In this document: piece after piece, positions 3,354-56,351 of the stretch
Layout of the letters: each line of letters starts with the position of its first letter
Position numbering within the stretch: position 1 is the first letter of the stretch
Source of the DNA: Squalus acanthias
Lineage: Eukaryota
NCBI GenBank assembly: GCA_030390025.1
Contig: JASTWF010000332.1
Span: forward strand, 434,001-498,000
DNA length: 64,000 nt
Reading direction: 5' to 3'
Notes under the pieces: generated by a model
What the model was told of the DNA's origin: nothing
The model's input: only the letters and a program-made list of their open reading frames with translations
The model's database searches: none
Program-made: the position numbers and the translations under genes

Positions 3354-3452
3354 AAGGCTGATATGTACAGCTTCGGAATGGTAATGCTGGACATGCTGTT
3401 TCAGTGCACAGCACAAGAACGCCAGAAGTGGAAGGATCGGATTGGACAATGT
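3354..3452 (+). CDS. EIF2AK4-like: GCN2-like exon, kinase subdomains IX-X: KADMYSFGMVMLDMLFQCTAQERQKWKDRIGQC
   Basis: ttccttcctgcag acceptor, gtaaga donor, 99 bp, phase 0-0. Matches the eIF2a-kinase K-x-D-x-[YF]-S-x-G...T..ER pattern (GCN2 KVDLFSLG...TASER). Confidence 0.9.
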
Positions 3453-4829: not shown

Positions 4830-4907
4830 AACTCTCAATGCTACATACATGAACTTTTTGTTGACAAAACAAAGGCCTTCCTTTTGCAACCAGAATTCTT
4901 GAGCTTG
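4830..4907 (+). CDS. EIF2AK4-like: Exon: NSQCYIHELFVDKTKAFLLQPEFLSL
   Basis: actttgcag acceptor, consensus gtgagt donor, 78 bp open, phase 0-0. Confidence 0.7.
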
Positions 4908-7780: not shown

Positions 7781-7849
7781 AAGTGTATTGTTTTAATTTA
7801 AATTAATTAAAGGGTAAATAATATTAATAAATTTAATTAATTACATAGA

Positions 7850-8806
7850 ATGGGAGAGCAGGTGATGTGTTACTGCTGCAATATGTGGGAGCTGGTGGAC
7901 ACCATTGATGTTCACGGTGATCACATTTGCAGTAAGTGTTGGCTGCTCGAGGAACTCCGGCTCCGTGTTGATGAGCTGGAGTCCGAGCTTCAAACACTGC
8001 GACACATCAGGGAGGGGGAGAGTTACCTGGACTCTGTGTTCCAGGAGGTAGTCACACCAATTAGATTAACTAATTCAGATGTAGCCCGTGATCAGGGACA
8101 GGAGGGTGTGACTACGAGTGAGGCAGGTACGGGGATCCAGGAGGTAGTGTTGGAGGAGCCGCAGCCCTTGCTCTTGTCCAACAGGTTCGAGGCTCTTACT
8201 CCCTGTGAGGACGGGAGCAGGGACTGCAGGGAGGATGAGCAACCTGGCCACAGCACCGTGGTACGGGGAGCCATTCAAGTGGGGGGAGTAAAAAGAAATG
8301 TTGTAGTGGTAGGGGATAGTATCATTAAGGGGATAGATAGGGTTCTTTGCAGCCGAGAGCAAGAGTCCCGAAGGCTGTGTTGCCTGCCCGGTGCCAGGGT
8401 TAAGGACATCTCCTCTGGGCTGGAGAGAAACTTGGAGTGGGAGGGGGAAGATCCAGTTGTCGTGGTCCATGTTGGTACCAATGACATAGATAGGACAAGG
8501 AATGAGGTTCTGCTGAGGGAGTATGAGCAGCTAGGGGCCAAATTAAAAAACAGAACCTCTAGGGTAGTAATCTCTGGATTACTACCTGAGCCACGAGCAA
8601 ATTTGGCTAGGGTAAATAAAATCAGAGAGTTAAATGCGTGGCTCAAAGACTGGTGTGGGAGAAATGGGTTTTGCTTCCTGGGACACTGGCACCAGTACTG
8701 GGACAGGAGAGAGCTGTTCCGTTGGGACGGACTTCACTTGGCCAGTGCTGGGACTAGAGTCCTGGCGAATCGAATAACTAGGGCTGTAGAGAGGGCTTTA
8801 AACTAA
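7850..8806 (+). CDS. CR1 ORF1p (zinc finger/leucine zipper + SGNH esterase domain), intact
   Basis: CxxCxM...CxKC followed by a heptad coiled coil; GDSII, CLPGA, HVGTND and DGLHL motifs. Confidence 0.93.
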   Translation: MGEQVMCYCCNMWELVDTIDVHGDHICSKCWLLEELRLRVDELESELQTLRHIREGESYLDSVFQEVVTPIRLTNSDVARDQGQEGVTTSEAGTGIQEVVLEEPQPLLLSNRFEALTPCEDGSRDCREDEQPGHSTVVRGAIQVGGVKRNVVVVGDSIIKGIDRVLCSREQESRRLCCLPGARVKDISSGLERNLEWEGEDPVVVVHVGTNDIDRTRNEVLLREYEQLGAKLKNRTSRVVISGLLPEPRANLARVNKIRELNAWLKDWCGRNGFCFLGHWHQYWDRRELFRWDGLHLASAGTRVLANRITRAVERALN

Positions 8807-8844
8807 TTAGTGGGGGGGAGGTTTCAAGAGAGCAAAAAATAAAA

Positions 8845-11783
8845 ATGTCAGCGGAGAAGGCAATAGAGCAAAGTAGCAGTGGGGTAATTAAAAACCAGAG
8901 CGTGTCAGGAAGGGACAGAATATATAAAGATAAAGGTAAAGTAGTAAAGGGGGTAAAAGCAGGAATAAATTGTCACAAAACATATTTAAAAGTTCTTTAT
9001 CTGAATGCACGCAGCATTCGTAACAAAATAGACGAGTTGACGGTACAAATAACTACGTATGGGTATGATCTTGTGGCCATTACAGAAACATGGCTGCAGG
9101 GTGACAACGACTGGGAATTAAATATGCCAGGGTATTTAACAATCAGGAAGGACAGGCAGGAAGGAAGAGGAGGTGGGGTAGCTATGTTAATAAAGGAAGG
9201 AATCACTGTATTACAGAGAAATGATATTGGGTCAAAGGATCAGGATAATGAAACAGTTTGGGTGGAGATAAGGAATAATAAGGGGAAAAAAACACTAGTG
9301 GGAGTAGTATATAGGCCTCCTAATAGTTGCAACTCTGCTGGAAGAAGTATTAATCAGGAAATAGTTGGGGCATGTAATAAGGGAACAGCTATAATTATGG
9401 GGGATTTTAACTATCATATTAACTGGACAAATCAAATTGGGCAGGGCAGCCTTGAGGAAGAGTTTATTGAGTGTATTAGGGATGGATTTCTTGAGCAGTA
9501 TGTAACTGATCCTACAAGGGGGCAAGCAACCTTGGACCTGGTCCTGTGTAATGAGTCAGGATTAATTAATAATGTCCTAGTTAAGGATCCCCTTGGAATG
9601 AGTGACCATAACATGGTTGAATTCCATATCCAATTAGAGGGTGAGAAGGTTGGTTCTCAGACAAGCGTACTGAGCTTGAATAAAGGAGACTATGATGGTA
9701 TGAGAGCAGAATTGATTAAAGTGGACTGGGAAAATAGATTAAAGGGTAAGACGGTACATGAGCAGTGGTGTTCATTTAAGGAGTTATTTTACAACTTTCA
9801 AAAAATATATATTCCACTGAGGAAAAAAGGGTGTAAAAGAAATGACAGCCATCCGTGGCTAAGTAAAGAAATTAAGGATAGTATCCAACTAAAAACAAGG
9901 ACATATAAGGTAGCCAAACTTAGTGGAGGATAGAAGATTGGGAAGTCTTCAAAAGACAGCAAAAAGTAACTAAAGGATTGATTAAGAAAGGGAAGATAGA
10001 TTATGAAAATAAATGAGCAAAAAATATAAAAACAGATAGCAAGAGTTTCTATAGTTATATAAAAAGAAAAAGGGTGGTTAAGGCAAACGTAGGTCCCTTA
10101 GAGGATGAGACCGGGAAATTAATGGTGGGAAACATGGAGATGGCAAAAATGCTGAACAAATATTTTGTTTCAGTCTTTACGGTAGAGGACACTAAGAATA
10201 TCCCAACACTGGACAAACAGGCTCTAGGGGGGGAGGAGCTAAATACGATTAAAATCACTAAGGAATTGGTACTCAGTAAAATAATGGGACTCAAGGCGGA
10301 TAAATCCCCTGGACCTGATGGCTTACATCCTAGGGTCTTGAGGGAAGTGGCAGTAGGGATTGTGGATGCTTTGGTAATAATTTTCCAAAATTCCCTGGAC
10401 TCAGCAAAGGTCCCGGCAGATTGGAAAACTGCTAATGTAACACCCTTATTTAAAAAGGGTAGTAGGCAGAAGGCTGGAAATTATAGACCAGTTAGTCTAA
10501 CATCTGTGGTGGGTAAAATTTTGGAGTCTATTATTAAGGAGACAGTAACGGAACATTTAGATAAACATAATTTAATAGGACAAAGTCAGCATGGCTTTAT
10601 GAAGGGGAAGTCATGTCTGACAAATTTGCTTGAGTTCTTTGAGGACATAACGTACAGGGTGGATAAAGGGGAACCAATGGACGTAGTGTATTTAGACTTC
10701 CAGAAGGCATTCGACAAGGTGCCACATAAAAGATTATTGCTCAAGATAAAAAATCACTGGATTGGGGGGAATATTCTGGCATGGGTGGAGGATTGGTTAT
10801 CTAACAGGAAGCAGAGAGTTGGGATAAATGGTTCATTCTCGGACTGGCAACCAGTAGCCAGTGGTGTTCCGCAGGGGTCGGTGCTGGGTCCCCAACTCTT
10901 TACAATCTATATTAACGATTTGGAGGAGGGGACCGAGTGTAACATATCAAAGTTTGCAGATGATACAAAGATGGGAGGGAAAGTAGAAAGTGAGGAGGAC
11001 ATAAAAAACCTACAAGGGGATATAGACAAGCTGGGTGAGTGGGCAGAGATTTGGCAGATGCAATACAATATTGGAAAATGTGAGGTTATGCACTTTGGCA
11101 GGAAAAATCAGAGAGCAAGTTATTATCTTAATGGCGAGAAACTGGAAAGTACTGCAGTACAAAGGGATCTGGGGGTCCTAGTGCAAGAAAATCAAAAAGT
11201 TAGTATGCAGGTGCAGCAGGTGATCAAGAAAGCCAACGGAATGTTGGCTTTTATTGCTAGGGGGATAGATTATAAAAACAGGGAGGTATTGCTGCAGTTA
11301 TATAAGGTATTGGTGAGACCGCATCTGGAATACTGCATACAGTTTTGGTGTCCATACTTAAGAAAAGACATACTTGCTCTCGAGGCAGTACAAAGAAGGT
11401 TCACTCGGTTAATCCCCGGGATGAGGGGGTGGACATATGAGGAGAGGTTGAGTAGATTGGGACTCTACTCATTGGAGTTCAGAAGAGTGAGAGGCGATCT
11501 TATTGAAACATATAAGATTGTGAAGGGGCTTGATCGGGTGGATGCGGTAAGGATGTTCCCAAGGATGGGTGAAACTAGAAGTAGGGGGCATAATCTTAGA
11601 ATAAGGGGCTGCTCTTTCAAAACTGAGATGAGGAGAAACTTCTTCACTCAGAGGGTAGTAGGTCTGTGGAATTTGCTGCCCCAGGAAGCTGTATCATTAA
11701 ATAAATTTAAAACAGAAATAGACAGTTTCCTAGAAGTAAAGGGAATTAGGGATTACGGGGAGCGGGCAGGAAATTGGACATGA
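8845..11783 (+). pseudogene. CR1 ORF2 (AP endonuclease + reverse transcriptase), disrupted
   Basis: NARSI, ITETWL, GDFN, SDH; QHGF, PQGSVLGP, FADD. Frameshift near 9928 and in-frame TGA at 10014. Confidence 0.93.
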
Positions 11784-12059
11784 GGCTGAGTTCGGATCGG
11801 TCGAGGCCCTGTGGGTGGCGTAGCGGGCCCAGGGGCTGAGTGGCCGGGTCCTGCTCCTACTTCTTGTGTTCTTTAGATTTGAGGTGAGGATCAGATCAGC
11901 CATGATCTTATTGAATGGCGGAGCAGGCTCGAAGGGCCGATTGGCCTACTCCTGCTCCTATTTCTTATGTTCTTATTAACCTCATCCTCCTGTGCCACTC
12001 ATCACATCCCCATCACTCTGCCTTCCCTACCCTACTCCTGCACATCCTTACACCAACTT

Positions 12060-14920: not shown

Positions 14921-15166
14921 CTGCAGACATGTCGAGAGTTGTTGCAGGATGATCCTCTGAAAAGGCCCAGTGCCGAGGAGATCCTTCACAGTAAGGATAT
15001 GGGCCTTCTGCCTGAGGAAAGGAGGAGACTGGAAGAAATACTGAATCAAACTCTTTCATCACCAGATAAAGACACACACAGAGAAACCATCAAGTTGATT
15101 TTTGAACGGCTTATTGGAAAAGTCTCCAAGGATCAAGAATCTGCTTACTATCATGCGCTTAGTGAG
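14921..15166 (+). CDS. EIF2AK4-like: Exon, kinase subdomain XI and linker: LQTCRELLQDDPLKRPSAEEILHSK...YYHALSE
   Basis: tttttcttttacag acceptor, GAG/gtattc donor, 246 bp, phase 0-0. Resembles GCN2 LLNHDPAKRPTATELLKS...ELHEVLHHTL...YRTMMAQIF. Confidence 0.92.
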
Positions 15167-16475: not shown

Positions 16476-16560
16476 ATCATGGACAGGGTCTTTACCATTT
16501 CATCATCCAGGTCGTGGCGATCTGTCGAAAGAGAACTGAGGCTGATATTTCAAAAGCATG
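16476..16560 (+). CDS. EIF2AK4-like: Exon, start of HisRS-like domain: IMDRVFTISSSRSWRSVERELRLIFQKH(G)
   Basis: tttttcacttcag acceptor, gtacgt donor, phase 0-1. IFQKHG corresponds to GCN2 IFKRHG (motif 1 region). Confidence 0.9.
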
Positions 16561-19572: not shown

Positions 19573-19694
19573 GTGCTGCTCCTGTGGATATTCCCGAGAT
19601 TATTCCATTCAGTGTGGGGACGTCCTGTCGCTGTGACGTCACAACAATGCTAAGCAGTGATGGGTATATTTATGAAATGACGCTGGATCACAAG
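19573..19694 (+). CDS. EIF2AK4-like: Exon: (G)AAPVDIPEIIPFSVGTSCRCDVTTMLSSDGYIYEMTLDHK
   Basis: cttctgctccag acceptor, AAG/gtatgt donor, 122 bp, phase 1-0. Colinear with GCN2 GAVQLCTPLLLP...FMDHSGMLVMLPFDLR. Confidence 0.9.
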
Positions 19695-20073: not shown

Positions 20074-20123
20074 GTGCCCTTTGTGCGTTTTGTTCATAAA
20101 AACAAAATAAGTGAAATTAAAAG
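20074..20123 (+). CDS. EIF2AK4-like: Exon: VPFVRFVHKNKISEIK(R)
   Basis: ctctgtttacag acceptor, AAG/gtaaat donor, 50 bp, phase 0-2. Matches GCN2 IPFARYVARNNILNLKR. Confidence 0.92.
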
Positions 20124-21381: not shown

Positions 21382-21535
21382 GTACTGCATGAAGAAAAGG
21401 TTTCTTCCGAATGGGCTTCCTTATCAAATACACTGTGCGTTTGATATCATCGATCTCGAGCAGGACTCCATCTTCGCTGTTGCAGAGTTAATTCAAATTG
21501 TGTCCGAGATTGTGAGCAAATATCCTGTAGCTGGG
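21382..21535 (+). CDS. EIF2AK4-like: Exon, HisRS-like motif 2: YCMKKRFLPNGLPYQIHCAFDIIDLEQDSIFAVAELIQIVSEIVSKYPVAG
   Basis: ttgttgtaaag acceptor, gtaagg donor, 154 bp, phase 2-0. YC...CAFDI...AE.I matches GCN2 YCIERVFRP...ECAFDIV...AEII. Confidence 0.92.
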
Positions 21536-23618: not shown

Positions 23619-23717
23619 AAACAATACAGACAGCTGATTATTAGTCACACACTGTTGGAAGAAACCCTCTTCAAAAATGGAAGTCCAGAATGTGGCTCAC
23701 AGGATCACTGTCCAAAG
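23619..23717 (+). CDS. EIF2AK4-like: Exon: KQYRQLIISHTLLEETLFKNGSPECGSQDHCPK
   Basis: ttatcttaacag acceptor, AAG/gtattt donor, 99 bp, phase 0-0. SHTLL...G.PE corresponds to GCN2 NHTMLL...GIPE. Confidence 0.85.
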
Positions 23718-24605: not shown

Positions 24606-24755
24606 TCCTGTGTCGGGTTGTCATTCGATGCCGTGTCCCAACAACTGGAAACGTTCTTGCAGCTGAATCCACACTTTGATGGATGCATCACTCGGTGTTG
24701 GGAATCACTGACAATTCTACAGAAGCTATTTGTGGATTCTGCTTTCACGGTAAAG
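24606..24755 (+). CDS. EIF2AK4-like: Exon: SCVGLSFDAVSQQLETFLQLNPHFDGCITRCWESLTILQKLFVDSAFTVK
   Basis: ttccatttcattag acceptor, AAG/gtaaga donor, 150 bp open, phase 0-0. Helical pattern like GCN2 ...GLKDLEEVVGLLKKLGIKLQ. Confidence 0.8.
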
Positions 24756-25505
24756 GTAAGAAGTAAGAGCATTACATTAAGGTAACATCTTGTACTCCTC
24801 AACGTGGTTGATTCTTAAGTGGCCCTGCAAACCACTCAATTGTATCAAACTACTGCAAAGGGTATCTTCAGGGCAACTAGGGATTAGCAGTAAATGCCAG
24901 CATTGCCAGCAGCGTCCACATCCCGAGAGTGGAAAAAAACACACAGTCTGGCGAACACCTTTTTCCTGCATGGTTTCTCGTTTGCAGTTTAGTCAGCTGT
25001 AGAACTCCAGCTGTGCAGCTTTTCTGCTTCACGCAGTAAACAAAATTACAAACCTTCCAAAAATGTTCTATTTTAATTGTTTGACGTGCTGTTCATTTAC
25101 CTGTCTTGCTTTGCGATGCATGCTCACTGTAAATATTATGATGGAAATACATACGGTAGTCAGTAAGTGAGTAAAGTAATTCAAGTCTCATACCTGGTCT
25201 TAGTGGTGAGGAAGCAGACTGGTGCTCTTAAAATTTATCTTCAAATAATTTAAAATACGACTGAGTCACTGACTGGGGGATTCGCTTTCCTCATAATCTC
25301 TATTTTCAATTCCAGTGTTTAAGCAGAGTGAGTTGGAGAACAAACAGGAATTATAGGGGAGAATCCCGTGGAGAAAGCTGAAATAAACTTCCACCTAAAA
25401 AAACAAGGAGCTTTTAAAATGTCTTCTGCGCTTAATGATAGCCACAACAAATATAGAATTTATTTATATCTATCAAATGAAATTTTGTGTCTGTAATGTC
25501 ATCTG

Positions 25506-26678
25506 TCTGTCACACTGAGGTCCGGGTGCCTGTCACACTGAAGTCCCGGTGCCTGTCACACTGGGGTCCCGGTGCCTGTCACACTTGGGTCCCGGTGCCT
25601 GTCACACTGGGGTCCCGGTGCCTGTCACACTGGGGTCCCGGTGCCTGTCACACTGGGGTCCCGGTGCCTGTCACACTGGGGTCCCGGTGCCTGTCACACT
25701 GGGGTCCCGGTGCCTGTCACACTGGGGTCCCGGTGCCTGTCACACTGGGGTCCCGGTGCCTGTCACACTGGGGTCCCGGTGCCTGTCACACTGGGGTCCC
25801 GGTGCCTGTCACACTGGGGTCCCGGTGCCTGTCACACTGGGGTCCCGGTGCCTGTCACACGGGGGTCCCGGTGCCTGTCACACTGGGGTCCCGGTGCCTG
25901 TCACACGGGGGTCCCGGTGCCTGTCACACGGGGGTCCCGGTGCCTGTCACACGGGGGTCCCGGTGCCTGTCACACGGGGGTCCCGGTGCCTGTCACACGG
26001 GGGTCCCGGTGCCTGTCACACGGGGGTCCCGGTGCCTGTCACACGGGGGTCCCGGTGCCTGTCACACGGGGGTCCCGGTGCCTGTCACACGGGGGTCCCG
26101 GTGCCTGTCACACGGGGGTCCCGGTGCCTGTCACACGGGGGTCCCGGTGCCTGTCACACGGGGGTCCCGGTGCCTGTCCACACGGGGGTCCCGGTGCCTG
26201 TCACACGGGGGTCCCGGTGCCTGTCACACGGGGGTCCCGGTGCCTGTCACACGGGGGTCCCGGTGCCTGTCACACGGGGGTCCCGGTGCCTGTCACACGG
26301 GGGTCCCGGTGCCGGCCACACGGGGGTCCCGGTGCCGGCCACACGGGGGTCCCGGTGCCGGCCACACGGGGGTCCCGGTGCCGGCCACACGGGGGTCCCG
26401 GTGCCGGCCACACGGGGGTCCCGGTGCCGGCCACACTGGGCTCCCGGTGCCTCTCACACGGGGCTCCCGGTGCCTCTCACACGGGGCTCCCGGTGTTTCT
26501 CACACTGGGGTCCCGGTGCCTGTCACACTGGGGTCCCGGTGCCTGTCACACGGGGGTCCCGGTGCCTGTCACACGGGGGTCCCGGTGCCGGCCACACGGG
26601 GGTCCCGGTGCCGGCCACACGGGGGTCCCGGTGCCGGCCACACGGGGGTCCCGGTGCCGGCCACACGGGGGTCCCGGT
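25506..26678. repeat. 23-bp GC-rich minisatellite, left arm (~50 copies)
   Basis: Unit GGGGTCCCGGTGCCTGTCACAC[T/G]. Confidence 0.97.
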
Positions 26679-26872
26679 TGTGGTAACACAATACAGCTTC
26701 CTGTGACTCGAACTTTATTGCATCACTTCCTGTGATTAGTCCAGGATAAATACTGGACTGATTAGTTGGATCCTGGAGAGGCATAGAGTAAGACGTCTTT
26801 TGTATGTAGCACCTTTTTAGTTGATTAAAGCTTACTTTAAGTTCACCACGCGTAAGGCTCATTCTTACGACA
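26679..26872 (+). repeat. 5' LTR
   Basis: TGTGGTAAC...TTACGACA; direct repeat of 30926-31119. Confidence 0.97.
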
Positions 26873-26950
26873 ATTTAATCAACTTTGAAAAACTTCGCAC
26901 TCAAACTTTTTGGACGAACTCGGAACTAAGGATCCAGGGAATCACCCATC

Positions 26951-29900
26951 ATGGAAAACATCCTTAAACCATCGCGTCTTGACTTGGACCCAAACACCCC
27001 AGCAGCCGGTAAGGTGTGGAAACACTGGTATCGCACGTTTGACAATTTTCTCGAATATTGCAAGGCTGATGATGACTCAAAGTTGCGGATACTCATCAAC
27101 TGTGTCACCCCGAATGTATTTCAGTATGTCGAGGAATGGGGCAGTTACGAGGAGGCAATTCGGATGCTTAAAAGACGATACACTAAGACACCGAATGAGG
27201 TCTATGCCAGACATCTACTAGCTACAGCCCAACAAGGGCCGGAGGAATCCATTGATAAATTCCTCCAAGAGCTTCGCAGACTTAGTATGGACTGTAACTT
27301 TCAGGCGGCCTCAGCTGAGCTGTACCGTGAAGAAATGATCCGTGATGCTTTCATCTGCGGGCTTGCCTCCCCATTTATACGCCAGCGTCTACTGGAAAGT
27401 AAGACACTTGAGCTTCGGAGAGCTTATGACATGGCTTGCTCTCTAGATCTGGCAAAAAGAAATGCAGACCTTTATACAGTGCCCAGACCTCGGTCTGCTG
27501 CCTTAACTACAGTCAGGCAATTTAAGAGGCCACAGGTGAACTCTATTAGGGAGGACTTTATCCCTGACGATCAATCTGATGACTTCACTGATGAAGAGGA
27601 TGATGACCCCACTGTGGCAGCCTCTTGGCAATCTAAGAAATGCTTCTTTTGTGGTGATGAGTTTCACCCTCGGAAATTCTGCCCTGCTCGCAATGCGTTT
27701 TGCAGTCATTGCAACAAAAAGGGTCATTTTGCAAAGGTTTGCCTATCAAGAGCCTCTACGAGGGCTTATCAAGCTAAGTCCTACCGAACTGCCCCGGTAA
27801 GGGCCTTTCAAGATGTTCCGGCTAAAATCTATCGTGCTTCCTCTCGGGTTTTCTCTCGAAGAAACACACCTAGAGTTTCAGCCACTCTTTGTGCAACGAC
27901 ACCAATTACAGCTGCTTGTCCTCAGAACCTATTCCATGCAGCTACAAAAGCATCAATTAATGGACATACTTTAGATGCCTTAATTGACTCAGGTAGCACT
28001 GATAGTTTCATTAGGGAACAGATTGTTGCAGAGTTAAAGCTACATGTTTTCCCATCGGACCAGGCAATTGCGATGGCTCAGTCATCACTTAATACCAGAA
28101 TTTCTGGCTTTTGTATGGTTGAAATAACACTTAATGGTCACAGGTATCCCTCCACCCGGCTTTCGGTGCTCAAGGACTTATGTAGTGATCTTATCTTAGG
28201 GCTGGATTTTCAAAAGCAGCATAAGAAGCTCACCATTGAGTTCGGCGGATCCAAACCTGAACTCACTATTTCTAATATACGACCTCGATTACCGTTCTGT
28301 GCATTGTCAGCAGCTTCACTGGATGAACCCTCACTGTTTACCAGTATCCCTCCTCGATGCAAACCGATTATAACAAAGTCACGACGTTTCAGTCAGGAAG
28401 ACCAGTCTTTTATTGCGGCTGAGATTTCTCGGCTTTTAGCAGAGGATATCATCGAGCCTTGTTCGTCGCCATGGCGCGCCCAGGTCGTTATTGTTAAGAA
28501 CCCTCTACAACCTCACAAGAAACGGCTGTGCATTGACTATTCACAGACCATCAATCAATATACGGACTTGGACGCATACCCATTGCTGCGCATCGATGAT
28601 ATGGTTAATAAACTGGCTGAGTACACGGTGTTCTCAACATATGATCTGAAAAGTGCCTATCATCAGGTACCCTTGAAGGTCTCAGACAAGCAGTATACGG
28701 CCTTTGAAGCCAATGGACGGCTGTATCAATTTCGTCGCCTCCCCTTTGGGGTCACTAATGGAGTGGCTGTCTTCCAGCGAGCAATGGATGACCTGGTCAA
28801 ACAGGAAGACTTGAAGGATACGTTTCCTTATCTGGACAATATTACTGTCGCAGGTCGCAATCAGCGGGAACATGACGCCAATCTCCAACGATTTTGGGAT
28901 GCACTCCAGCACCGTAATTTGACATTAAATGCGGCTAAATCCATTGAGTCACAACCAACCATCAACATCCTTGGCTATTGTGTGGGCAATGGCATCATTA
29001 AACCTGACCCTGAAAGGCTTCGCCCACTCCAAGAGCTCCCGCCACCTAAGAATCCGGCCTCCTTGCGCCGGGCCCTCGGCCTGTTTGCATACTATGCTAA
29101 ATGGATTCCTAACTTCTCGGACCGAATCCAACCTCTACTGAAGGCCAGCACATTCCCACTAGACACAGCGGCTGTTGCAGCCTTTAACCTCCTGAAAAAA
29201 CAGTTGGAGAAAGCGGCTCTTCACTCCATCGATGAGAGTCTTCCTTTTGTTGTTGAGTGTGATGCCTCGGAGGTGGCGATCTCGGCCACTCTGAATCAGG
29301 AAGGTCGTCCGGTGGCATTTTTGTCCAGGACTTTTCAAGGGGCTGAGCTACATTATCCTCCAGTCGAGAAAGAAGCTACAGCCATCATAGAGGCAGTACG
29401 GAAGTGGACTCATCTCCTAGCTCGCCAGCACTTTACCTTAATCACGGACCAGCGATCGGTCGCCTTCATGCTCGATAATCGAAAACGGACCAAAATTAAA
29501 AATAATAAAATCCAACTTTGGCGGCTGGAATTGGCCTCTTTTGGTTACACCATCCACTATCGACCTGGCAAGGAGAATGTGGCTCCGGATACCCTCACAC
29601 GAGCATTCTGCTCCGCCATGGCACCCTCTACGCTCGTAGACATCCATGATGGGTTGTGTCATCCGGGCGTTACTCGCATGCTACACTTCGTGCGGTCCCG
29701 AAATCTCCCATTCTCTACCGGGGATGTAAAGAAGATGTGCTCGGACTGCAGAGTCTGTGCGGAATTGAAACCTCAGTTTTTCCGCACCTCGGGTGGTATA
29801 CTCATACATGCAACCCAGCCAATGCAACGGCTTAGCATCGATTTTAAGGGGCCGTTGCCCTCTTCAACTCGCAACACTTATCTATTGACCATGGTCGATG

Positions 29901-30907
29901 AGTATTCCCGTTTTCCGTTTGCCTTTCCCTGCCCCAATATGTTGACGACCACGGTTATCAGCTGCCTTGAGCAGGTATTTGCTTTCTGTGGCATGGCATC
30001 CTATGTTCATTCGGATTGGGGCCCTTCTTTTATGTCAGGAGAACTCAAGGCCTATCTCTCGGAACGGGGTATTGCTGCCAGCAGAACGACGCCTTATCAT
30101 CCGGTCGGGAATGGGCAAGTCGAGCGTTTTAACGCTATCATCTGGAATGCGGTACGTCTGGCTTTGAGATCTCGGGGCCTACCCAACCAGCAATGGGAAG
30201 CAGTACTTCCAGACGCATTACACTCCACACAGTCCCTCCTTTCGACCGCCACAAATACGACGCCTCATGAACGGTTCTTCCGATTTCAGCGTCGCTCATC
30301 CTATGGGATATCTCTCCCGTCGTGGCTGACTGCAGCGGGACCAGTGCTACTCCGAAGATATGTCCGGGCGTCTAAGAATGACCCCCTGGTAGATGAGGTT
30401 GAGCTCACTGACGTCAACCCTACCTACGCCTATATTCGGTATCCTGACGGTCGGGAATCTACCGTGTCATTGCGGGATCTGGCTCCCTGCCCGCCGAAAC
30501 ATAGAGGGACACCAGGGGATGATATTGTACCAGGCACATCTCTGGGCTCGCCAGGTGCCTCTCATCACGATCTGGATCTGACGCCGGCTGGTATCTCACT
30601 CCAGCGTGCCGACCTGGGGCAGACTGACTATGAGCCCGTCGGGGCTCGCACGCGCAGCCACGATCCACCCCGTACCGTATGCTCGGAAACGGATCTGCCA
30701 CAGCCCTGCCCGACACCCGTTCGGGCACCAGTACACAGTCAGGATCGTCCTGACCCCTCACAGAGCGGGCTGGATCACTCGGACTCTGGTCCACGGCCCG
30801 CGGCGGGTAAACGGGCTAGGGGCCCTCTACCGCTACGAGAACCCAAACGGGTGGGGCTCTCCCTCGTCCGGCGGCTACGAAATGGATGGAGCATCCCGGC
30901 CTCCTAA
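26951..30907 (+). CDS. Gag-Pol polyprotein (Gag with double Zn knuckle, protease, RT, RNase H, integrase)
   Basis: CFFCG..H....CPA....CSHCNKKGHFAKVC; ALIDSGS; LPFG, YLDN; ECDAS; H..CHPG..C.VC, IDFKG, HSD.G, VERFN. The PR-RT-RH-IN order indicates Gypsy. Confidence 0.96.
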   Translation: MENILKPSRLDLDPNTPAAGKVWKHWYRTFDNFLEYCKADDDSKLRILINCVTPNVFQYVEEWGSYEEAIRMLKRRYTKTPNEVYARHLLATAQQGPEESIDKFLQELRRLSMDCNFQAASAELYREEMIRDAFICGLASPFIRQRLLESKTLELRRAYDMACSLDLAKRNADLYTVPRPRSAALTTVRQFKRPQVNSIREDFIPDDQSDDFTDEEDDDPTVAASWQSKKCFFCGDEFHPRKFCPARNAFCSHCNKKGHFAKVCLSRASTRAYQAKSYRTAPVRAFQDVPAKIYRASSRVFSRRNTPRVSATLCATTPITAACPQNLFHAATKASINGHTLDALIDSGSTDSFIREQIVAELKLHVFPSDQAIAMAQSSLNTRISGFCMVEITLNGHRYPSTRLSVLKDLCSDLILGLDFQKQHKKLTIEFGGSKPELTISNIRPRLPFCALSAASLDEPSLFTSIPPRCKPIITKSRRFSQEDQSFIAAEISRLLAEDIIEPCSSPWRAQVVIVKNPLQPHKKRLCIDYSQTINQYTDLDAYPLLRIDDMVNKLAEYTVFSTYDLKSAYHQVPLKVSDKQYTAFEANGRLYQFRRLPFGVTNGVAVFQRAMDDLVKQEDLKDTFPYLDNITVAGRNQREHDANLQRFWDALQHRNLTLNAAKSIESQPTINILGYCVGNGIIKPDPERLRPLQELPPPKNPASLRRALGLFAYYAKWIPNFSDRIQPLLKASTFPLDTAAVAAFNLLKKQLEKAALHSIDESLPFVVECDASEVAISATLNQEGRPVAFLSRTFQGAELHYPPVEKEATAIIEAVRKWTHLLARQHFTLITDQRSVAFMLDNRKRTKIKNNKIQLWRLELASFGYTIHYRPGKENVAPDTLTRAFCSAMAPSTLVDIHDGLCHPGVTRMLHFVRSRNLPFSTGDVKKMCSDCRVCAELKPQFFRTSGGILIHATQPMQRLSIDFKGPLPSSTRNTYLLTMVDEYSRFPFAFPCPNMLTTTVISCLEQVFAFCGMASYVHSDWGPSFMSGELKAYLSERGIAASRTTPYHPVGNGQVERFNAIIWNAVRLALRSRGLPNQQWEAVLPDALHSTQSLLSTATNTTPHERFFRFQRRSSYGISLPSWLTAAGPVLLRRYVRASKNDPLVDEVELTDVNPTYAYIRYPDGRESTVSLRDLAPCPPKHRGTPGDDIVPGTSLGSPGASHHDLDLTPAGISLQRADLGQTDYEPVGARTRSHDPPRTVCSETDLPQPCPTPVRAPVHSQDRPDPSQSGLDHSDSGPRPAAGKRARGPLPLREPKRVGLSLVRRLRNGWSIPAS

Positions 30908-30925: not shown

Positions 30926-31119
30926 TGTGGTAACACAATACAGCTTCCTGTGACTCGAACTTTATTGCATCACTTCCTGTGATTAGTCCAGGATAAATAC
31001 TGGACTGATCAGTTGGATCCTGGAGAGGCATAGAGTAAGACCTCTTTTGTATGTAGCACCTTTTTAGTTGATTAAAGCTTACTTTAAGTTCACCACGCGT
31101 AAGGCTCATTCTTACGACA
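30926..31119 (+). repeat. 3' LTR
   Basis: Direct repeat of the 5' LTR. Confidence 0.97.
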
Positions 31120-32178
31120 CCGGTGCCTGCCACACTGAGGTCCCGGTGCCTGTCACACGGGGGTCCCGGTGCCGGCCACACTGAGGTCCCGGTGCCTGTC
31201 ACACGGGGGTCCCGGTGCCGGCCACACGGGGGTCCCGGCGCCGGCCACACTGGGGTCCCGGCGCCGGTCACACTGGGGTCCCGGCGCCTGCCACACGGGG
31301 GTCCCGGCGCCTGCCACACGGGGGTCCCGGCGCCTGTCACACGGGGGTCCCGGCGCCTGTCACACGGGGGTCCCGGCGCCTGCCACACGGGGGTCCCGGC
31401 GCCTGCCACACGGGGGTCCCGGCGCCTGCCACACGGGGGTCCCGGCGCCTGCCACACGGGGGTCCCGGCGCCTGCCACACGGGGGTCCCGGCGCCTGCCA
31501 CACGGGGGTCCCGGCGCCTGTCACACGGGGGTCCCGGCGCCTGTCACACGGGGGTCCCGGCGCCTGTCACACGGGGGTCCCGGCGCCTGTCACACGGGGG
31601 TCCCGGCGCCTGTCACACGGGGGTCCCGGCGCCTGCCACACGGGGGTCCCGGCGCCTGCCACACGGGGGTCCCGGCGCCTGCCACACGGGGGTCCCGGCG
31701 CCGGCCACACGGGGGTCCCGGCGCCGGCCACACGGGGGTCCCGGCGCCGGCCACACGGGGGTCCCGGCGCCGGCCACACGGGGGTCCCGGCGCCGGCCAC
31801 ACGGGGGTCCCGGCGCCGGCCACACGGGGGTCCCGGCGCCTGCCACACGGGGGTCCCGGCGCCTGCCACACGGGGGTCCCGGCGCCTGCCACACGGGGTC
31901 CCGGCGCCTGCCACACGGGGGTCCCGGCGCCTGCCACACGGGGGTCCCGGCGCCTGCCACACGGGGGTCCCGGCGCCTGCCACACGGGGGTCCCGGCGCC
32001 TGCCACACGGGGGTCCCGGCGCCTGCCACACGGGGGTCCCGGCGCCTGCCACACGGGGGTCCCGGCGCCGGCCACACGGGGGTCCCGGCGCCGGCCACAC
32101 GGGGGTCCCGGCGCCGGCCACACTGAGGTCCCGGCGCCGGTCACACTGAGGTCCCGGCGCCGGCCACACGGGGGTCCC
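31120..32178. repeat. 23-bp GC-rich minisatellite, right arm (~46 copies)
   Basis: Unit mostly GGGGGTCCCGGCGCCTGCCACAC. Confidence 0.97.
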
Positions 32179-32583
32179 TGTCTGACTGACGTCTCCCACC
32201 TGAGCTGTCTGATTGGTTAGTTTTCCCACTGTGTCAATTGTAAAATACATAAAAACTTTTCACCATTTTTCAGTCCTCATGAGAGTTTTCTACTTACAGC
32301 CCAGAGTCCAATTTTAAAAATGAGCTCCGTTGTGACTTACCTGCTTAATGTCTGCCTCCAGCACCACGTGATGTTCCTTCTCTGGGCGAGCCCCCTCCCC
32401 CCTCACTCGATACCCAGACCCTGCCCTCTGTGATGGATCTGCACCCTTGCCTGCAGCTCACTCCTGCTCCCCTTTCTCTCCCCACACATCCACCTTAACC
32501 CCAAGTCCCACCCTGCTGCTTGGCTTCTGCCACACGTTCGATGCCATTCCCGTTCACTTCCCGACGTCTGCTCCTTTGACAGT

Positions 32584-36058: not shown

Positions 36059-36178
36059 GTAGGAAGTTTACGTGGTACAGAAGAAATAAACCTGAAGCAT
36101 TACGAAGGATTGCTTTTTGCTTTGTACAATGCAGCTGGATCTGGCTTTCTGGTGTTCGGAGGGCAGTATACAAAACTA
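36059..36178 (+). CDS. EIF2AK4-like: Exon: VGSLRGTEEINLKHYEGLLFALYNAAGSGFLVFGGQYTKL
   Basis: Long pyrimidine tract + cag, gtaaga donor, 120 bp, phase 0-0. HYEGLLF and GGQY correspond to HisRS/GCN2 HNGIIF and GGRYD. Confidence 0.9.
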
Positions 36179-39700: not shown

Positions 39701-39802
39701 CTCCGAAGTTTTGATGTGTCCTTTGGGGAGTTGCCCGAGCTGTCTGCTGCCGGCCTGAACATCGACCTCCAGAAACTGGTAGAAGCAGACGCAAAGGCAA
39801 AG
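39701..39802 (+). CDS. EIF2AK4-like: Exon, motif-3 region: LRSFDVSFGELPELSAAGLNIDLQKLVEADAKAK
   Basis: ctgtag acceptor, AAG/gtaaaa donor, 102 bp, phase 0-0. AAGLNIDLQKL corresponds to GCN2 AIGVSIAIDKI. Confidence 0.85.
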
Positions 39803-40316: not shown

Positions 40317-40445
40317 AAACCTGACAGGACGGACAAAATCTGTATTCATTGCACTCCTGACACAAGTGCGGAAATCTGTTTTAAGTTGGCAAGAAAGTTT
40401 TGGGAAGCAGGCATACGCATTAGATTGATGACCAGACTTAATGAG
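40317..40445 (+). CDS. EIF2AK4-like: Exon, anticodon-binding-like domain: KPDRTDKICIHCTPDTSAEICFKLARKFWEAGIRIRLMTRLNE
   Basis: gcacag acceptor, GAG/gtaatg donor, 129 bp, phase 0-0. LARKFWEAGI corresponds to GCN2 LTQKLWTAGI. Confidence 0.9.
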
Positions 40446-44041: not shown

Positions 44042-44116
44042 AAAAAGGTTACAGCTGAGAGTCTTGAAAAGGGAAGGATATTTGTTCTACAGCCACAGGG
44101 TGAAACAGATTTAAAG
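44042..44116 (+). CDS. EIF2AK4-like: Exon: KKVTAESLEKGRIFVLQPQGETDLK
   Basis: ttttgcttctttttag acceptor, AAG/gtaaga donor, 75 bp open, phase 0-0, expected position. Sequence similarity is weak. Confidence 0.7.
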
Positions 44117-44737
44117 GTAAGAACAGCAATCCCAGCCAAGCTGTCCTGTCAGTGGAAGTTAATGAATGTACATAGGACCAATGCAAAGGAGTGGAAGGCC
44201 TGAAACATGGGGGGCGATTTTCCCAGCCCTGAGGAGGCGGGTTTGGAGGCGGGACAGTTGGCAAAATCGCCAAAAGTAAGGGCGGGTTCGGAACCTACCT
44301 CCAACCCGCCTCTGCGCAATTTTGCCGGAGACGGGTTTCATGGGTGTGATTCGGTCCCGCCTCCATCAGTTGGGAGAGGTAGTTAAGACCCTTAAATAAT
44401 AGTTAAGGGCCTCTATAATCCTATTTTGACAGGCCTTTGTTATTTTACCACATTTTCAGCGTGTTCCACGACCCTCCTAAACCACGCCAGCTAATCCTGG
44501 CGGGTTGACAAGTGGGTGGCCTCCTCACAGCTGCAGCTCCACCATTAAAACGGAGCTTTCATCAGGGAGCAGTTGCAGGTAGCAGAACTTTTGTTCCACA
44601 GGTCTTTCAGTACTTTTAGCAGGCCTACAGAAGTTGGAGGTGCTGCAGCTTCTATCTCTCAACTGTGGGACCTCCTTGGAAGACCCTCTCCCCGCTTAGA
44701 CTGAGCGCTTCCCCAACGGAGGTATTTGCCAGCAGCA

Positions 44738-45935
44738 TGGGAGCCATTTATTTCCTTTCACCATGGACCTCAGATTCGGATGAGGAGCAGCCATCGCAGC
44801 AGCAGAACCAGGCAGTTCAGCAGCAACAGCAGCAGAAACACCAACCTCCTGCTCACCCACCTGATGCTGCACAGGGCAGAAGGCGCCAGCACATGGAAGC
44901 ACGTCGCCGCAGGAGATACCCCCCTCTCAGGGTTTACAGAGAGAGGATGAGCTACCTCAACATGACTGAGCAGCAATACCAAAGGAGGCTGAGAGTTTCG
45001 CAACAGGTTGTCGGAGACATCTGCGCACTGCTGCACCAACACCTGGAGCCCAGAGGAGCGGGTGGACACCCCTTACCAGTGGCTGTCAAAGTCACCACCG
45101 CACTCAACTTTTTTTCCTCAGGCTCCTTCCAGGGATCATCAGCAGACATCAGCGGCATCTCCCAGTCAGAGGTTACCGATGCCCTTTTCGCAAAGGCGCA
45201 CAATTACATCCACTTCTCAAGGGATCAAGCAAGTATAACTGCGCGTTCGGTTGGCTTTGCAAATATGGCAGGCTTGCCAATGGTGCAGGGCGTCATAGAC
45301 TGCACACATGTGGCCCTTAGGGCACCCCATCAAAACCCAGCTATCTTTGTCAACCGCAAGGGCTTCCACTCCTCAACGTACAGCTGGTGTGTAACCAGAA
45401 GAAGGAGATTTTGCAGGTTTGTACCAAGTTCTGTGGTAGTGGCCATAACTCGTTCATCCTGCGGAACTCTAGTGTTCCTCCGCTCTTCAATCCGCCAAAC
45501 CAACTTAACGGATGGCTCCTTGGTGACAAGGGCTACCCCCTGAAGAAGTGGCTAATGACGCCGATCAGGAGGCCAGCTAATGAGGCTGAGGAGCGCCACA
45601 ACGCCAGCCACATTTCGACCAGGTCCATCATCGAGCAAACCATTGGCTTGCTGAAGATGCGATTCCGATGCCTTGACAGATCAGATGTAGCCCTGCAGTA
45701 TTCAGCAGCCAGGGTCTCCAGAATGGTCGTGGTCTGCTGTGCACTGCACAGCATGGCACAGCGTCACGGCTTGCAGCTTCCTGATGAGCAAGTGGCTCAG
45801 TTCATAGCCTCCTCAGATGAGGAGAAGGAGGAGGAGGACCGAGCGGCGGCGTATCGACCAGCAGCAGCGGCAGCACGCGAGCACATGGCTGCCCGTGATG
45901 CAAGGATTGTCCTCATCCTGGCCAGATTTGCATAG
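44738..45935 (+). pseudogene. Harbinger (HARBI1-like) DDE transposase, frameshifted
   Basis: [38 protein letters not shown]. 1-nt frameshift near 45371. Confidence 0.9.
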
Positions 45936-46092
45936 GTTGCCCATTGTGGCACATGTGCTTGGCTCCTTCTTAACACATGATAGACAATGGACATGACTCT
46001 CTGGCCTCCTTTCACTCTGACCACCAACCTGACCACGCAAGTGTCGCGGAGCCTGCAATGTGGAGCTGCCTCAGCCAAAATAACAGATGCCA

Positions 46093-46362
46093 TCACGCCA
46101 ACAGTTTGCCATCACCTAATTTTAAAACATTCACACAGGGATGGCATTTCATCAATAAACAGAAACAATCACCCAATCTGCACACAGATCTGGAGGTTAT
46201 ATCCCTTGCCAGCTGGACCCACACAGCCTTGGTTTCTTTGGGAGGCCTCTTCCTCCCAGATGAGAGGAAGAGCACCTCCCTGCTAGCTCTCGCCCCCTCA
46301 ACCAGCATACCCAGCACCTCATCCGAGAACCTCGGGGAGGCCCTTGCCTTGGAGCTGGCCAT
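46093..46362 (-). pseudogene. Harbinger Myb/SANT-like DNA-binding protein remnant
   Basis: PRFSDEVLGMLVEG...REVLF...W..LA..I trihelix/MADF-like N-terminus. Confidence 0.75.
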
Positions 46363-53676: not shown

Positions 53677-53771
53677 GTGTTGCTGTATGACAGAGGAAAA
53701 GTTTCAACCCTAAACAGCCTAGAGAAGTTTTTGCAATGTGCGAAAAAAAACACAAAACGGACCCCGTCAAG
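53677..53771 (+). CDS. Candidate late exon: VLLYDRGKVSTLNSLEKFLQCAKKNTKRTPS(R)
   Basis: tgtttatctttag acceptor, AAG/gtacag donor, only one frame open. No homology support. Confidence 0.3.
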
Positions 53772-56272: not shown

Positions 56273-56351
56273 GTGCTCGGCAAAGAGACAGCTTTGTTCC
56301 AAGAGACGACTGAAAGTGCCAAGACTGCATTGTGCACTGAGAAAGTATTAG
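56273..56351 (+). CDS. Candidate terminal coding exon: CSAKRQLCSKRRLKVPRLHCALRKY*
   Basis: ttttgcttttcaaccaagcag acceptor, followed by AT-rich 3'UTR-like sequence and ATTAAA at 56840. Confidence 0.3.

Follow-up and report, generated by a model that had tools for sequence, protein, structure and literature searches.

A GCN2 paralogue of sharks and rays carries a conserved leucine at the motif-2 arginine position of its synthetase-like domain

Can a GCN2-type kinase whose synthetase-like domain has leucine at the arginine position of motif 2 still sense amino-acid starvation through tRNA? The question is raised by a 64,000-nucleotide stretch of the Squalus acanthias genome (the window), in which positions 21383..21409 of the plus strand encode YCMKKRFLP, the first strand of motif 2 in a paralogue of GCN2 (EIF2AK4). 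As the initial annotation had proposed, this segment aligns without gaps with YCIERVFRP of human GCN2 (PDB 8t7t), and the canonical GCN2 of the same genome (G000:C1:97327032-97327200) also reads YCIERVFRP. Arg550 (21398-21400) stands opposite human V1142, Phe551 (21401-21403) opposite F1143, and Leu552 (CTT, 21404-21406) opposite R1144, the arginine altered in the gcn2-m2 allele. When the genome was searched with the YCMKKRFLP stretch, the sole further match was the YCIERVFRP exon on contig C1. The segment belongs to exon 15 of 23 (21382..21535, plus strand, with GT-AG splice sites), which encodes the motif-2 hairpin and the following helix and is represented in spliced contigs; a Pfam search of this exon alone returned no family match. 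Exon 15 is 154 nt long versus 169 nt in the canonical gene, and its ends are identical, so the motif-2 loop is shorter by exactly five codons, as had been estimated. The shortened loop is predicted to form a tight turn.

The placement of Leu552 in the arginine column was confirmed in multiple alignments with GCN2 and HisRS proteins. The register was unchanged when human HisRS was aligned using phmmer, with which the phmmer alignment to human GCN2 agreed; it also held in MAFFT, and hhalign paired F-L with F-R. Scored with a profile built from 123 distant GCN2 rows, the register with Leu in the Arg column reached +24.9 bits (24 columns), whereas moving the upstream Arg into that column without a gap gave -66.0 bits. 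A gapped register, in which two core-strand columns are deleted to bring Arg550 into the Arg column, scored 7.7 versus 3.7 bits over 10 columns, before gap cost, and is disfavored. Structure prediction bore this out in part. In an AlphaFold model of a sawshark orthologue (P0006) the motif-2 strands lie at 557-566 and 572-583, and in a canonical fish GCN2 at 105-115 and 125-136; the two models agree in the start of the first strand and in the length of the second, and differ in the loop. However, the alignment from which the paralogue was modeled already had Leu in the Arg column; the model inherits that register and is not independent of it. The leucine is common to the orthologues of other sharks, being kept in each of the 45 orthologue isoform records (14 species, rays included), and between exon 15 and a spliced contig of independent origin (X2 record 19) there were 0 differences; the Leu is therefore neither a chance occurrence nor a sequencing error.

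Orthologue-guided modeling gave a gene of 23 exons, with GT-AG at every intron and an open frame of 877 codons. Eight exons lie upstream of the window (exons 1-8, G000:C2584:404097-433942), and 15, all on the plus strand, lie inside it. Exon 9 (3354..3452) encodes the αF-αG region of the kinase, including the Thr equivalent to human T943 (eIF2α docking), exon 10 (4830..4907) the kinase C-lobe, and exon 11 (14921..15166), which occurs in transcript-like contigs, the end of the kinase and a helical linker to the HisRS-like domain. Then follow the motif-1 helix, ending in a kept K-H-G (exon 12, 16476..16560); a β-hairpin (exon 13, 19573..19694) with Thr (19680-19682) for human P1115 and Leu (19683-19685) for human F1116, which is yeast Y1092; and a helix leading into motif 2 (exon 14, 20074..20123). 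Beyond exon 15, a shortened insertion domain begins in exon 16 (23619..23717) and continues in exon 17 (24606..24755). Exon 18 (36059..36178) encodes the HisA/HisB region, where GGRYD has become GGQYT (Gln, 36164-36166; Thr, 36170-36172), and exon 19 (39701..39802) motif 3. The anticodon-binding-like domain occupies exons 20 (40317..40445), 21 (44042..44116), and 22 (53677..53771), the last of which encodes its end, where most basic residues are lost or variable. Exon 23 (56273..56351) encodes a basic tail, with 14 K/R and no D/E in the last 36 residues, and the stop codon, in place of the CTD. Two contigs, X2 record 19 and X9 record 26, each from a different run that is presumably of RNA, join exons 15 and 17 with a spacing of about 99 nt, equal to the length of exon 16. 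A third run contains a contig with a GT-AG joint, so that spliced transcript-like contigs were found in three runs.

To place the product, we compared it with canonical GCN2 (human, 8t7t and 7qq6; yeast, 9f58; and the copy in the same genome, G000:C1:97.23-97.38 Mb). The two share a GCN2-type kinase domain with a long β4-β5 insert, followed by linker helices and by HisRS-like and anticodon-binding-like domains, to which the paralogue adds its basic tail. A model of the paralogue matched the GCN2 kinase with Z 26.3 (rmsd 2.7 Å, 256 residues aligned) and GCN2 HisRS-like domains with Z 26-27 (rmsd about 8 Å, about 410 aligned), at a sequence identity to canonical GCN2 of about 27%-29%. The paralogue differs from GCN2 in being without the RWD domain, the charged linker, the pseudokinase, and the CTD. 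Pfam detected no RWD domain. The absence of a pseudokinase before the kinase is indicated both by the exon search described below and by the Gly-loop, which in 42 of the 45 records starts no later than residue 60, the other three being N-terminally truncated isoforms; the longest record has at most 936 residues. A search of the 298 kb surrounding the gene revealed no RWD, pseudokinase, or CTD exons (one match, at E 0.1), whereas the canonical GCN2 locus gave 61 matches. The paralogue gene stops at 56351, where the canonical gene continues with CTD exons. HisRS and HisZ-type pseudo-synthetases have in common with the paralogue the class II fold, motifs 1-3, and an HGTP-type anticodon domain, but the paralogue is fused to a kinase and is without the catalytic Arg and the HisB motif; the Pfam tRNA-synt_His model scored 19 bits on it, below the cut-off of 25.

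In the kinase, the catalytic Lys, αC Glu, HRD Asp, Asn, DFG, and APE are kept in 10 of 10 paralogues, as are both activation-loop Thr residues and the αG Thr-x-x-Glu-Arg; at none of the 13 catalytic and docking positions examined did these 10 proteins differ from one another or from 14 canonical ones. The R585-E589 salt bridge of the N-lobe is missing in all ten paralogues, with Leu and Gly at these positions (counted from the Gly-loop). The kinase insert has likewise lost its acidic patch, the longest D/E run being at most 3, versus at least 7 in 14/14 canonical proteins. In the synthetase-like domain, every one of the ten has F-L for the motif-2 aromatic-Arg pair and GGQYT for the HisB GGRYD, i.e., motif-2 Arg→Leu, HisB Arg→Gln, and HisB Asp→Thr, together with P1115→Thr; the corresponding R, R, and D are present in 14/14 canonical proteins. 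The insertion domain has 67 residues versus 105 in canonical GCN2 (38 fewer), and the basic residues in the anticodon-binding strand are mostly lost or variable (10 paralogues against 14 canonical proteins). Also kept in the paralogues are G1109, D1117, H1202, the motif-1 K-H-G, and the linker helices, as is the insert segment that the available text of a 2026 preprint (10.64898/2026.09.09.750423) terms repressive. Two of the 14 canonical proteins, both from skates (P0019 and P0050), have His instead of Arg585 and, in HisB, Phe instead of Tyr; skates are a lineage in which protein searches found no paralogue.

The altered sites are among the most conserved parts of the protein. Leu552 sits inside a 12-residue invariant stretch, and the rebuilt motif-2 and HisB segments, 12 residues each, are among the five longest invariant runs, the others being the DFG, HRD, and linker runs. 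Identity of the motif-2 hairpin is 93% among paralogues, versus 94% among canonical elasmobranch GCN2 proteins. Taken together, this invariance and canonical-like conservation argue that selection maintains the new state. Arg occupies the motif-2 column in 97/97 aligned vertebrate canonical rows and in 97 of 123 distant GCN2-type rows (from 149 representatives, 26 of them without an alignable motif). The remaining 26 of the 123 have other residues, Leu in one, so that a non-Arg residue at this position is, as far as these sequences go, not in itself unique to the paralogue. In a full-length GCN2 from the amphipod Hyalella azteca (P0190), Leu stands in the motif-2 Arg column, a possible independent change.

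Orthologues were found in 14 species (12 sharks and 2 rays), where RefSeq names them automatically "eIF-2-alpha kinase GCN2-like." The 877-residue product is 76%-91% identical to 10 orthologues, and 435 of its 877 positions are invariant in 10 sequences. Among 1.84 billion representatives the family forms a single cluster (1657 bits), the next GCN2-type proteins scoring below 300. Protein searches gave no orthologue in skates, chimaera, or bony fish, which is weak evidence of absence. Of the 22 introns, 9 coincide exactly in position and phase with those of the genome's canonical GCN2, and 8 more share the phase and are displaced by at most 6 columns; the paralogue is therefore a DNA-level duplicate and not a retrocopy. 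In trees of 146 and 34 rows, restricted to the kinase and the first half of the HisRS-like domain, the stem branch measured 2.1 (FastTree) or about 4.7 (mixture model) changes per site, and branches within the family were about as long as those of canonical elasmobranch GCN2. The AU test gave p = 0.21 for sisterhood with jawed-vertebrate GCN2 and p = 0.066 for sisterhood with elasmobranch GCN2, so that neither was rejected. With a stem this saturated, the trees did not place the paralogue, whether as a 2R ohnologue of vertebrate GCN2 or otherwise.

Synteny was examined using a home-made exon finder that recovered part of the known exons and mostly noise; Pfam, run on 50 of 173 candidates, assigned 0 families. 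One neighbor emerged, a PTB/PID-domain gene lying head-to-head 25 kb upstream of the paralogue (minus-strand exons at G000:C2584:378970-379077 and 137843-137962), which we take to be NOS1AP-like, and first exons related to its own were found on C14 and C25. A PID-domain exon also lies 1.4 Mb from canonical GCN2 (G000:C1:95875721-95875855). It belongs to another branch of the family than the paralogue's neighbor and is presumably NUMB-like.

The paralogue is real and conserved, and hitherto has had only automatic RefSeq annotation. We found no paper describing a shark or ray GCN2 paralogue, in a search that covered mostly literature outside subscription, and the available portions of PMC12867742 and PMC5851622 make no mention of sharks. 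Another extra protein of the eIF2α-kinase family confined to cartilaginous fishes, PKR-sis, is described in the accessible text of PMC11305385. PKR-sis is reported there to be sister to PKR, with its kinase at residues 260-537 and without a HisRS-like domain, whereas the kinase of the paralogue is N-terminal and GCN2-type; on these grounds we rejected the identity of the two. The accession prefix of the shark GCN2-like proteins did not occur in one supplement of that paper.

The initial annotation read Leu552 as a natural counterpart of gcn2-m2, and m2 as a block to activation by uncharged tRNA. The likeness lies in the Leu at the Arg position. In the available text of PMC10899773 and PMC6421407, m2 is a double change, Y1119L/R1120L in yeast and F1143L/R1144L in human GCN2; the aromatic residue is thus lost in m2, whereas Phe is kept in 10/10 paralogues, and their Leu is natural, conserved, and one among many changes. 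Nor is the block specific to tRNA, because m2 is reported also to prevent activation by ribosomes and the P-stalk (PMC6421407 and PMC11363354, as excerpted); the 2026 preprint, in its available part, states that tRNA inhibits, and does not activate, mammalian GCN2. A single R-to-L mutant was not found in the accessible portions of the GCN2 mutant literature examined. The position of yeast Y1092, where a Cys substitution suppresses m2 and the paralogue has Leu, is a weak point in the comparison. The idea that this Leu is a compensating activator was weakened by the finding of His there in 14 of 97 canonical vertebrate rows, often in sharks, and of varied residues in distant rows. Leu552 is a marker of a remodeled pocket, not a natural m2 allele. 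By itself it is of modest interest; it is a small part of a remodeling in which the RWD domain, pseudokinase, CTD, motif-2 loop, and HisB Arg and Asp were lost. The suggestion that the paralogue does not sense starvation through tRNA fared better: the residue is the m2 Arg, the change is common to all orthologues, and loss of tRNA-type sensing is likely. In yeast Gcn2, according to the available part of PMC4335047, R1325A in HisB abolishes tRNA binding and D1327A/K block activation.

What, then, might the paralogue do? We put the chances at about even that it is an active eIF2α kinase uncoupled from tRNA, GCN1, and ribosomes, on a synthetase scaffold that likely dimerizes. This starvation-blind kinase is our preferred reading because the parts that serve sensing in GCN2 are removed or altered, whereas those that serve catalysis, docking of the substrate, and, by prediction, pairing are kept. 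GCN1 would have lost its route through the RWD domain; the routes for ribosomes (pseudokinase, CTD, and motif 2) and for RNA (motif 2, HisB, and the anticodon domain) would likewise be removed or altered. Of two brakes, one would be off (the CTD) and one still on (the insert strand). For kinase activity, substrate, dimer state, and ligand, we infer from sequence and from GCN2 mutants. On that basis, closure of the pocket would have ended RNA and P-stalk sensing, loss of the CTD would raise basal activity, and the kept insert strand would still act as a brake; without the N-lobe salt bridge and the acidic patch, output would be lower or rewired. The net effect may be a modest, starvation-blind phosphorylation of eIF2α, set by the place and time of expression or by some partner of the rebuilt surface. 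Such a kinase would likely restrain protein synthesis without answering to a shortage of amino acids. In the accessible portions of the papers concerned, deletion of the CTD raised basal activity of human GCN2 about 20-fold (PMC6421407), the linker helices and motif 1 make up the GCN2 dimer interface (PMC11363354), P1115L is a hypomorphic patient variant, and R585Q is hypomorphic (both PMC11336063).

Several points weigh against a starvation-blind kinase. The Phe that m2 alters is still present. The first motif-2 strand has gained basic residues (K-K-R where canonical GCN2 has E-R-V), and with the strongly basic tail this might let RNA or acidic ligands bind. By analogy, a human construct of kinase plus HisRS-like domain, reported in the available text of PMC6421407 to be still ribosome-responsive, would suggest that the paralogue could be so too, and the hypomorphic R585Q would predict poor activity in a protein without the salt bridge. 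Conservation of motif 2 appears to exceed the obvious need of a passive scaffold. Finally, exon 7 is split by a LINE in the Squalus acanthias genome.

A different explanation is that the pocket was rebuilt rather than closed, and that its new motif-2 and HisB surfaces bind another ligand (a metabolite, peptide, or protein) that triggers the kinase. We consider this possible but on balance unlikely. It extends the preferred reading and differs from it in making the pocket the trigger. The suggestion of another ligand, already made in the initial annotation, plausibly fits the invariance of both rebuilt segments, as does the very long stem followed by a canonical-like rate within sharks and rays. 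The Gcn2 motif-2 loop contacts the linker helix leading to the kinase (PMC11363354, available text), and the linker is invariant in the paralogue. Against a new trigger, none of the searches made yielded a candidate ligand, and both segments sit either in the core of the domain or close to the dimer interface, where folding or pairing could explain their conservation. With similar reserve, we suggest that elasmobranchs may have evolved an extra integrated-stress-response kinase whose pseudo-active site is a sensor for a ligand that is neither tRNA nor the ribosome. It would, again tentatively, be a GCN2 stripped to kinase and synthetase fold and nearly unchanged since the split of sharks and rays.

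That RNA or acidic P-stalk sensing was retained, with Arg550, Lys548/549, and the basic tail replacing the lost Arg in a GCN1-independent mini-GCN2, seems to us improbable. Strand residues i and i+2 point to the same side, and Arg is present at the human Val position in 10/10 paralogues; the gapped register is competitive on score before gap cost; and in 10 of 11 proteins the final 36 residues of the tail include 9-14 K/R. In human GCN2, the kinase and HisRS-like domains suffice for a ribosome response (PMC6421407, in the part available). Set against this are the losses of the HisB Arg, motif-2 loop, most basic residues of the anticodon strand, pseudokinase, and CTD. The catalytic-like domain is moreover net acidic (27 K/R and 31 D/E) versus net basic (40 and 33) in canonical GCN2, and the tail is just 55% conserved and missing from one ray isoform.

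We think it quite improbable that the paralogue serves mainly to regulate canonical GCN2, a role raised in the initial annotation, through mixed dimers or competition for eIF2α, or that it acts on a different substrate, with a weak eIF2α output of its own. The loss of the salt bridge, P1115 equivalent, and acidic patch, with the repressive strand kept, would predict low activity. However, the full catalytic set and αG Thr are kept, and the protein is without the CTD, one of the main domains for pairing; across the dimer surfaces of the linker and motif 1, identity is 88% among orthologues but 23%-26% to canonical GCN2. Finally, that Leu552 is neutral decay in a dying duplicate is very improbable, in that the LINE in exon 7 and the lack of orthologues in skates and chimaera in protein searches are outweighed by open frames in 14 species, high identity, invariance at half of the positions, and spliced transcripts.

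Decay is largely refuted for the family but may still hold for the Squalus acanthias allele. Exon 7, which encodes the activation-loop insert and lies upstream of the window, is split by a 3.6-kb, 5′-truncated LINE (G000:C2584:429625-433241; L006:3625-7241) that removes about 17 nt of the exon. We take this LINE to be CR1-type; it is 90% identical to an element at 8420-11976 of the window. Read from its original acceptor, exon 7 now runs into the LINE. Use of an AG that lies in frame, 33 nt deeper in the old exon, would give a protein 11 residues shorter, in a variable region; the 877-residue model uses this downstream AG. Because the LINE splits the exon, the Squalus acanthias copy may be shortened or null. 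Exon 7 is intact in a DNA contig of a relative and in one spliced contig.

If the paralogue has a trigger of its own, it would be a further eIF2α-kinase input in vertebrates. In either case it is a natural, long-selected GCN2 without the m2 Arg, HisB Arg and Asp, motif-2 loop, pseudokinase, and CTD; with fold, linker, and repressive insert strand kept, it offers a natural test case for GCN2 activation. Swaps of its parts into human GCN2 would tease apart scaffolding and sensing and test the insert-strand model of 2026.

The window also contains several repeats. A near-complete LINE at 7841-11783 (plus strand) has an esterase-like ORF1 and endonuclease and reverse-transcriptase frames, and is 90% identical to the exon-7 copy. 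Intron 17 holds, at 26930-30907 on the minus strand, a 1325-residue frame with zinc-knuckle, protease, reverse-transcriptase, and integrase-like motifs, flanked on both sides by similar sequence; it is presumably a Ty3/gypsy-type LTR retrotransposon. GC-rich tandem arrays flank this element (25481-26735 and 31072-32259) and have long repetitive open frames on both strands. In intron 21, frames at 44620-46362 resemble a transposase and a partner gene, which we assume to be those of a Harbinger-type element.
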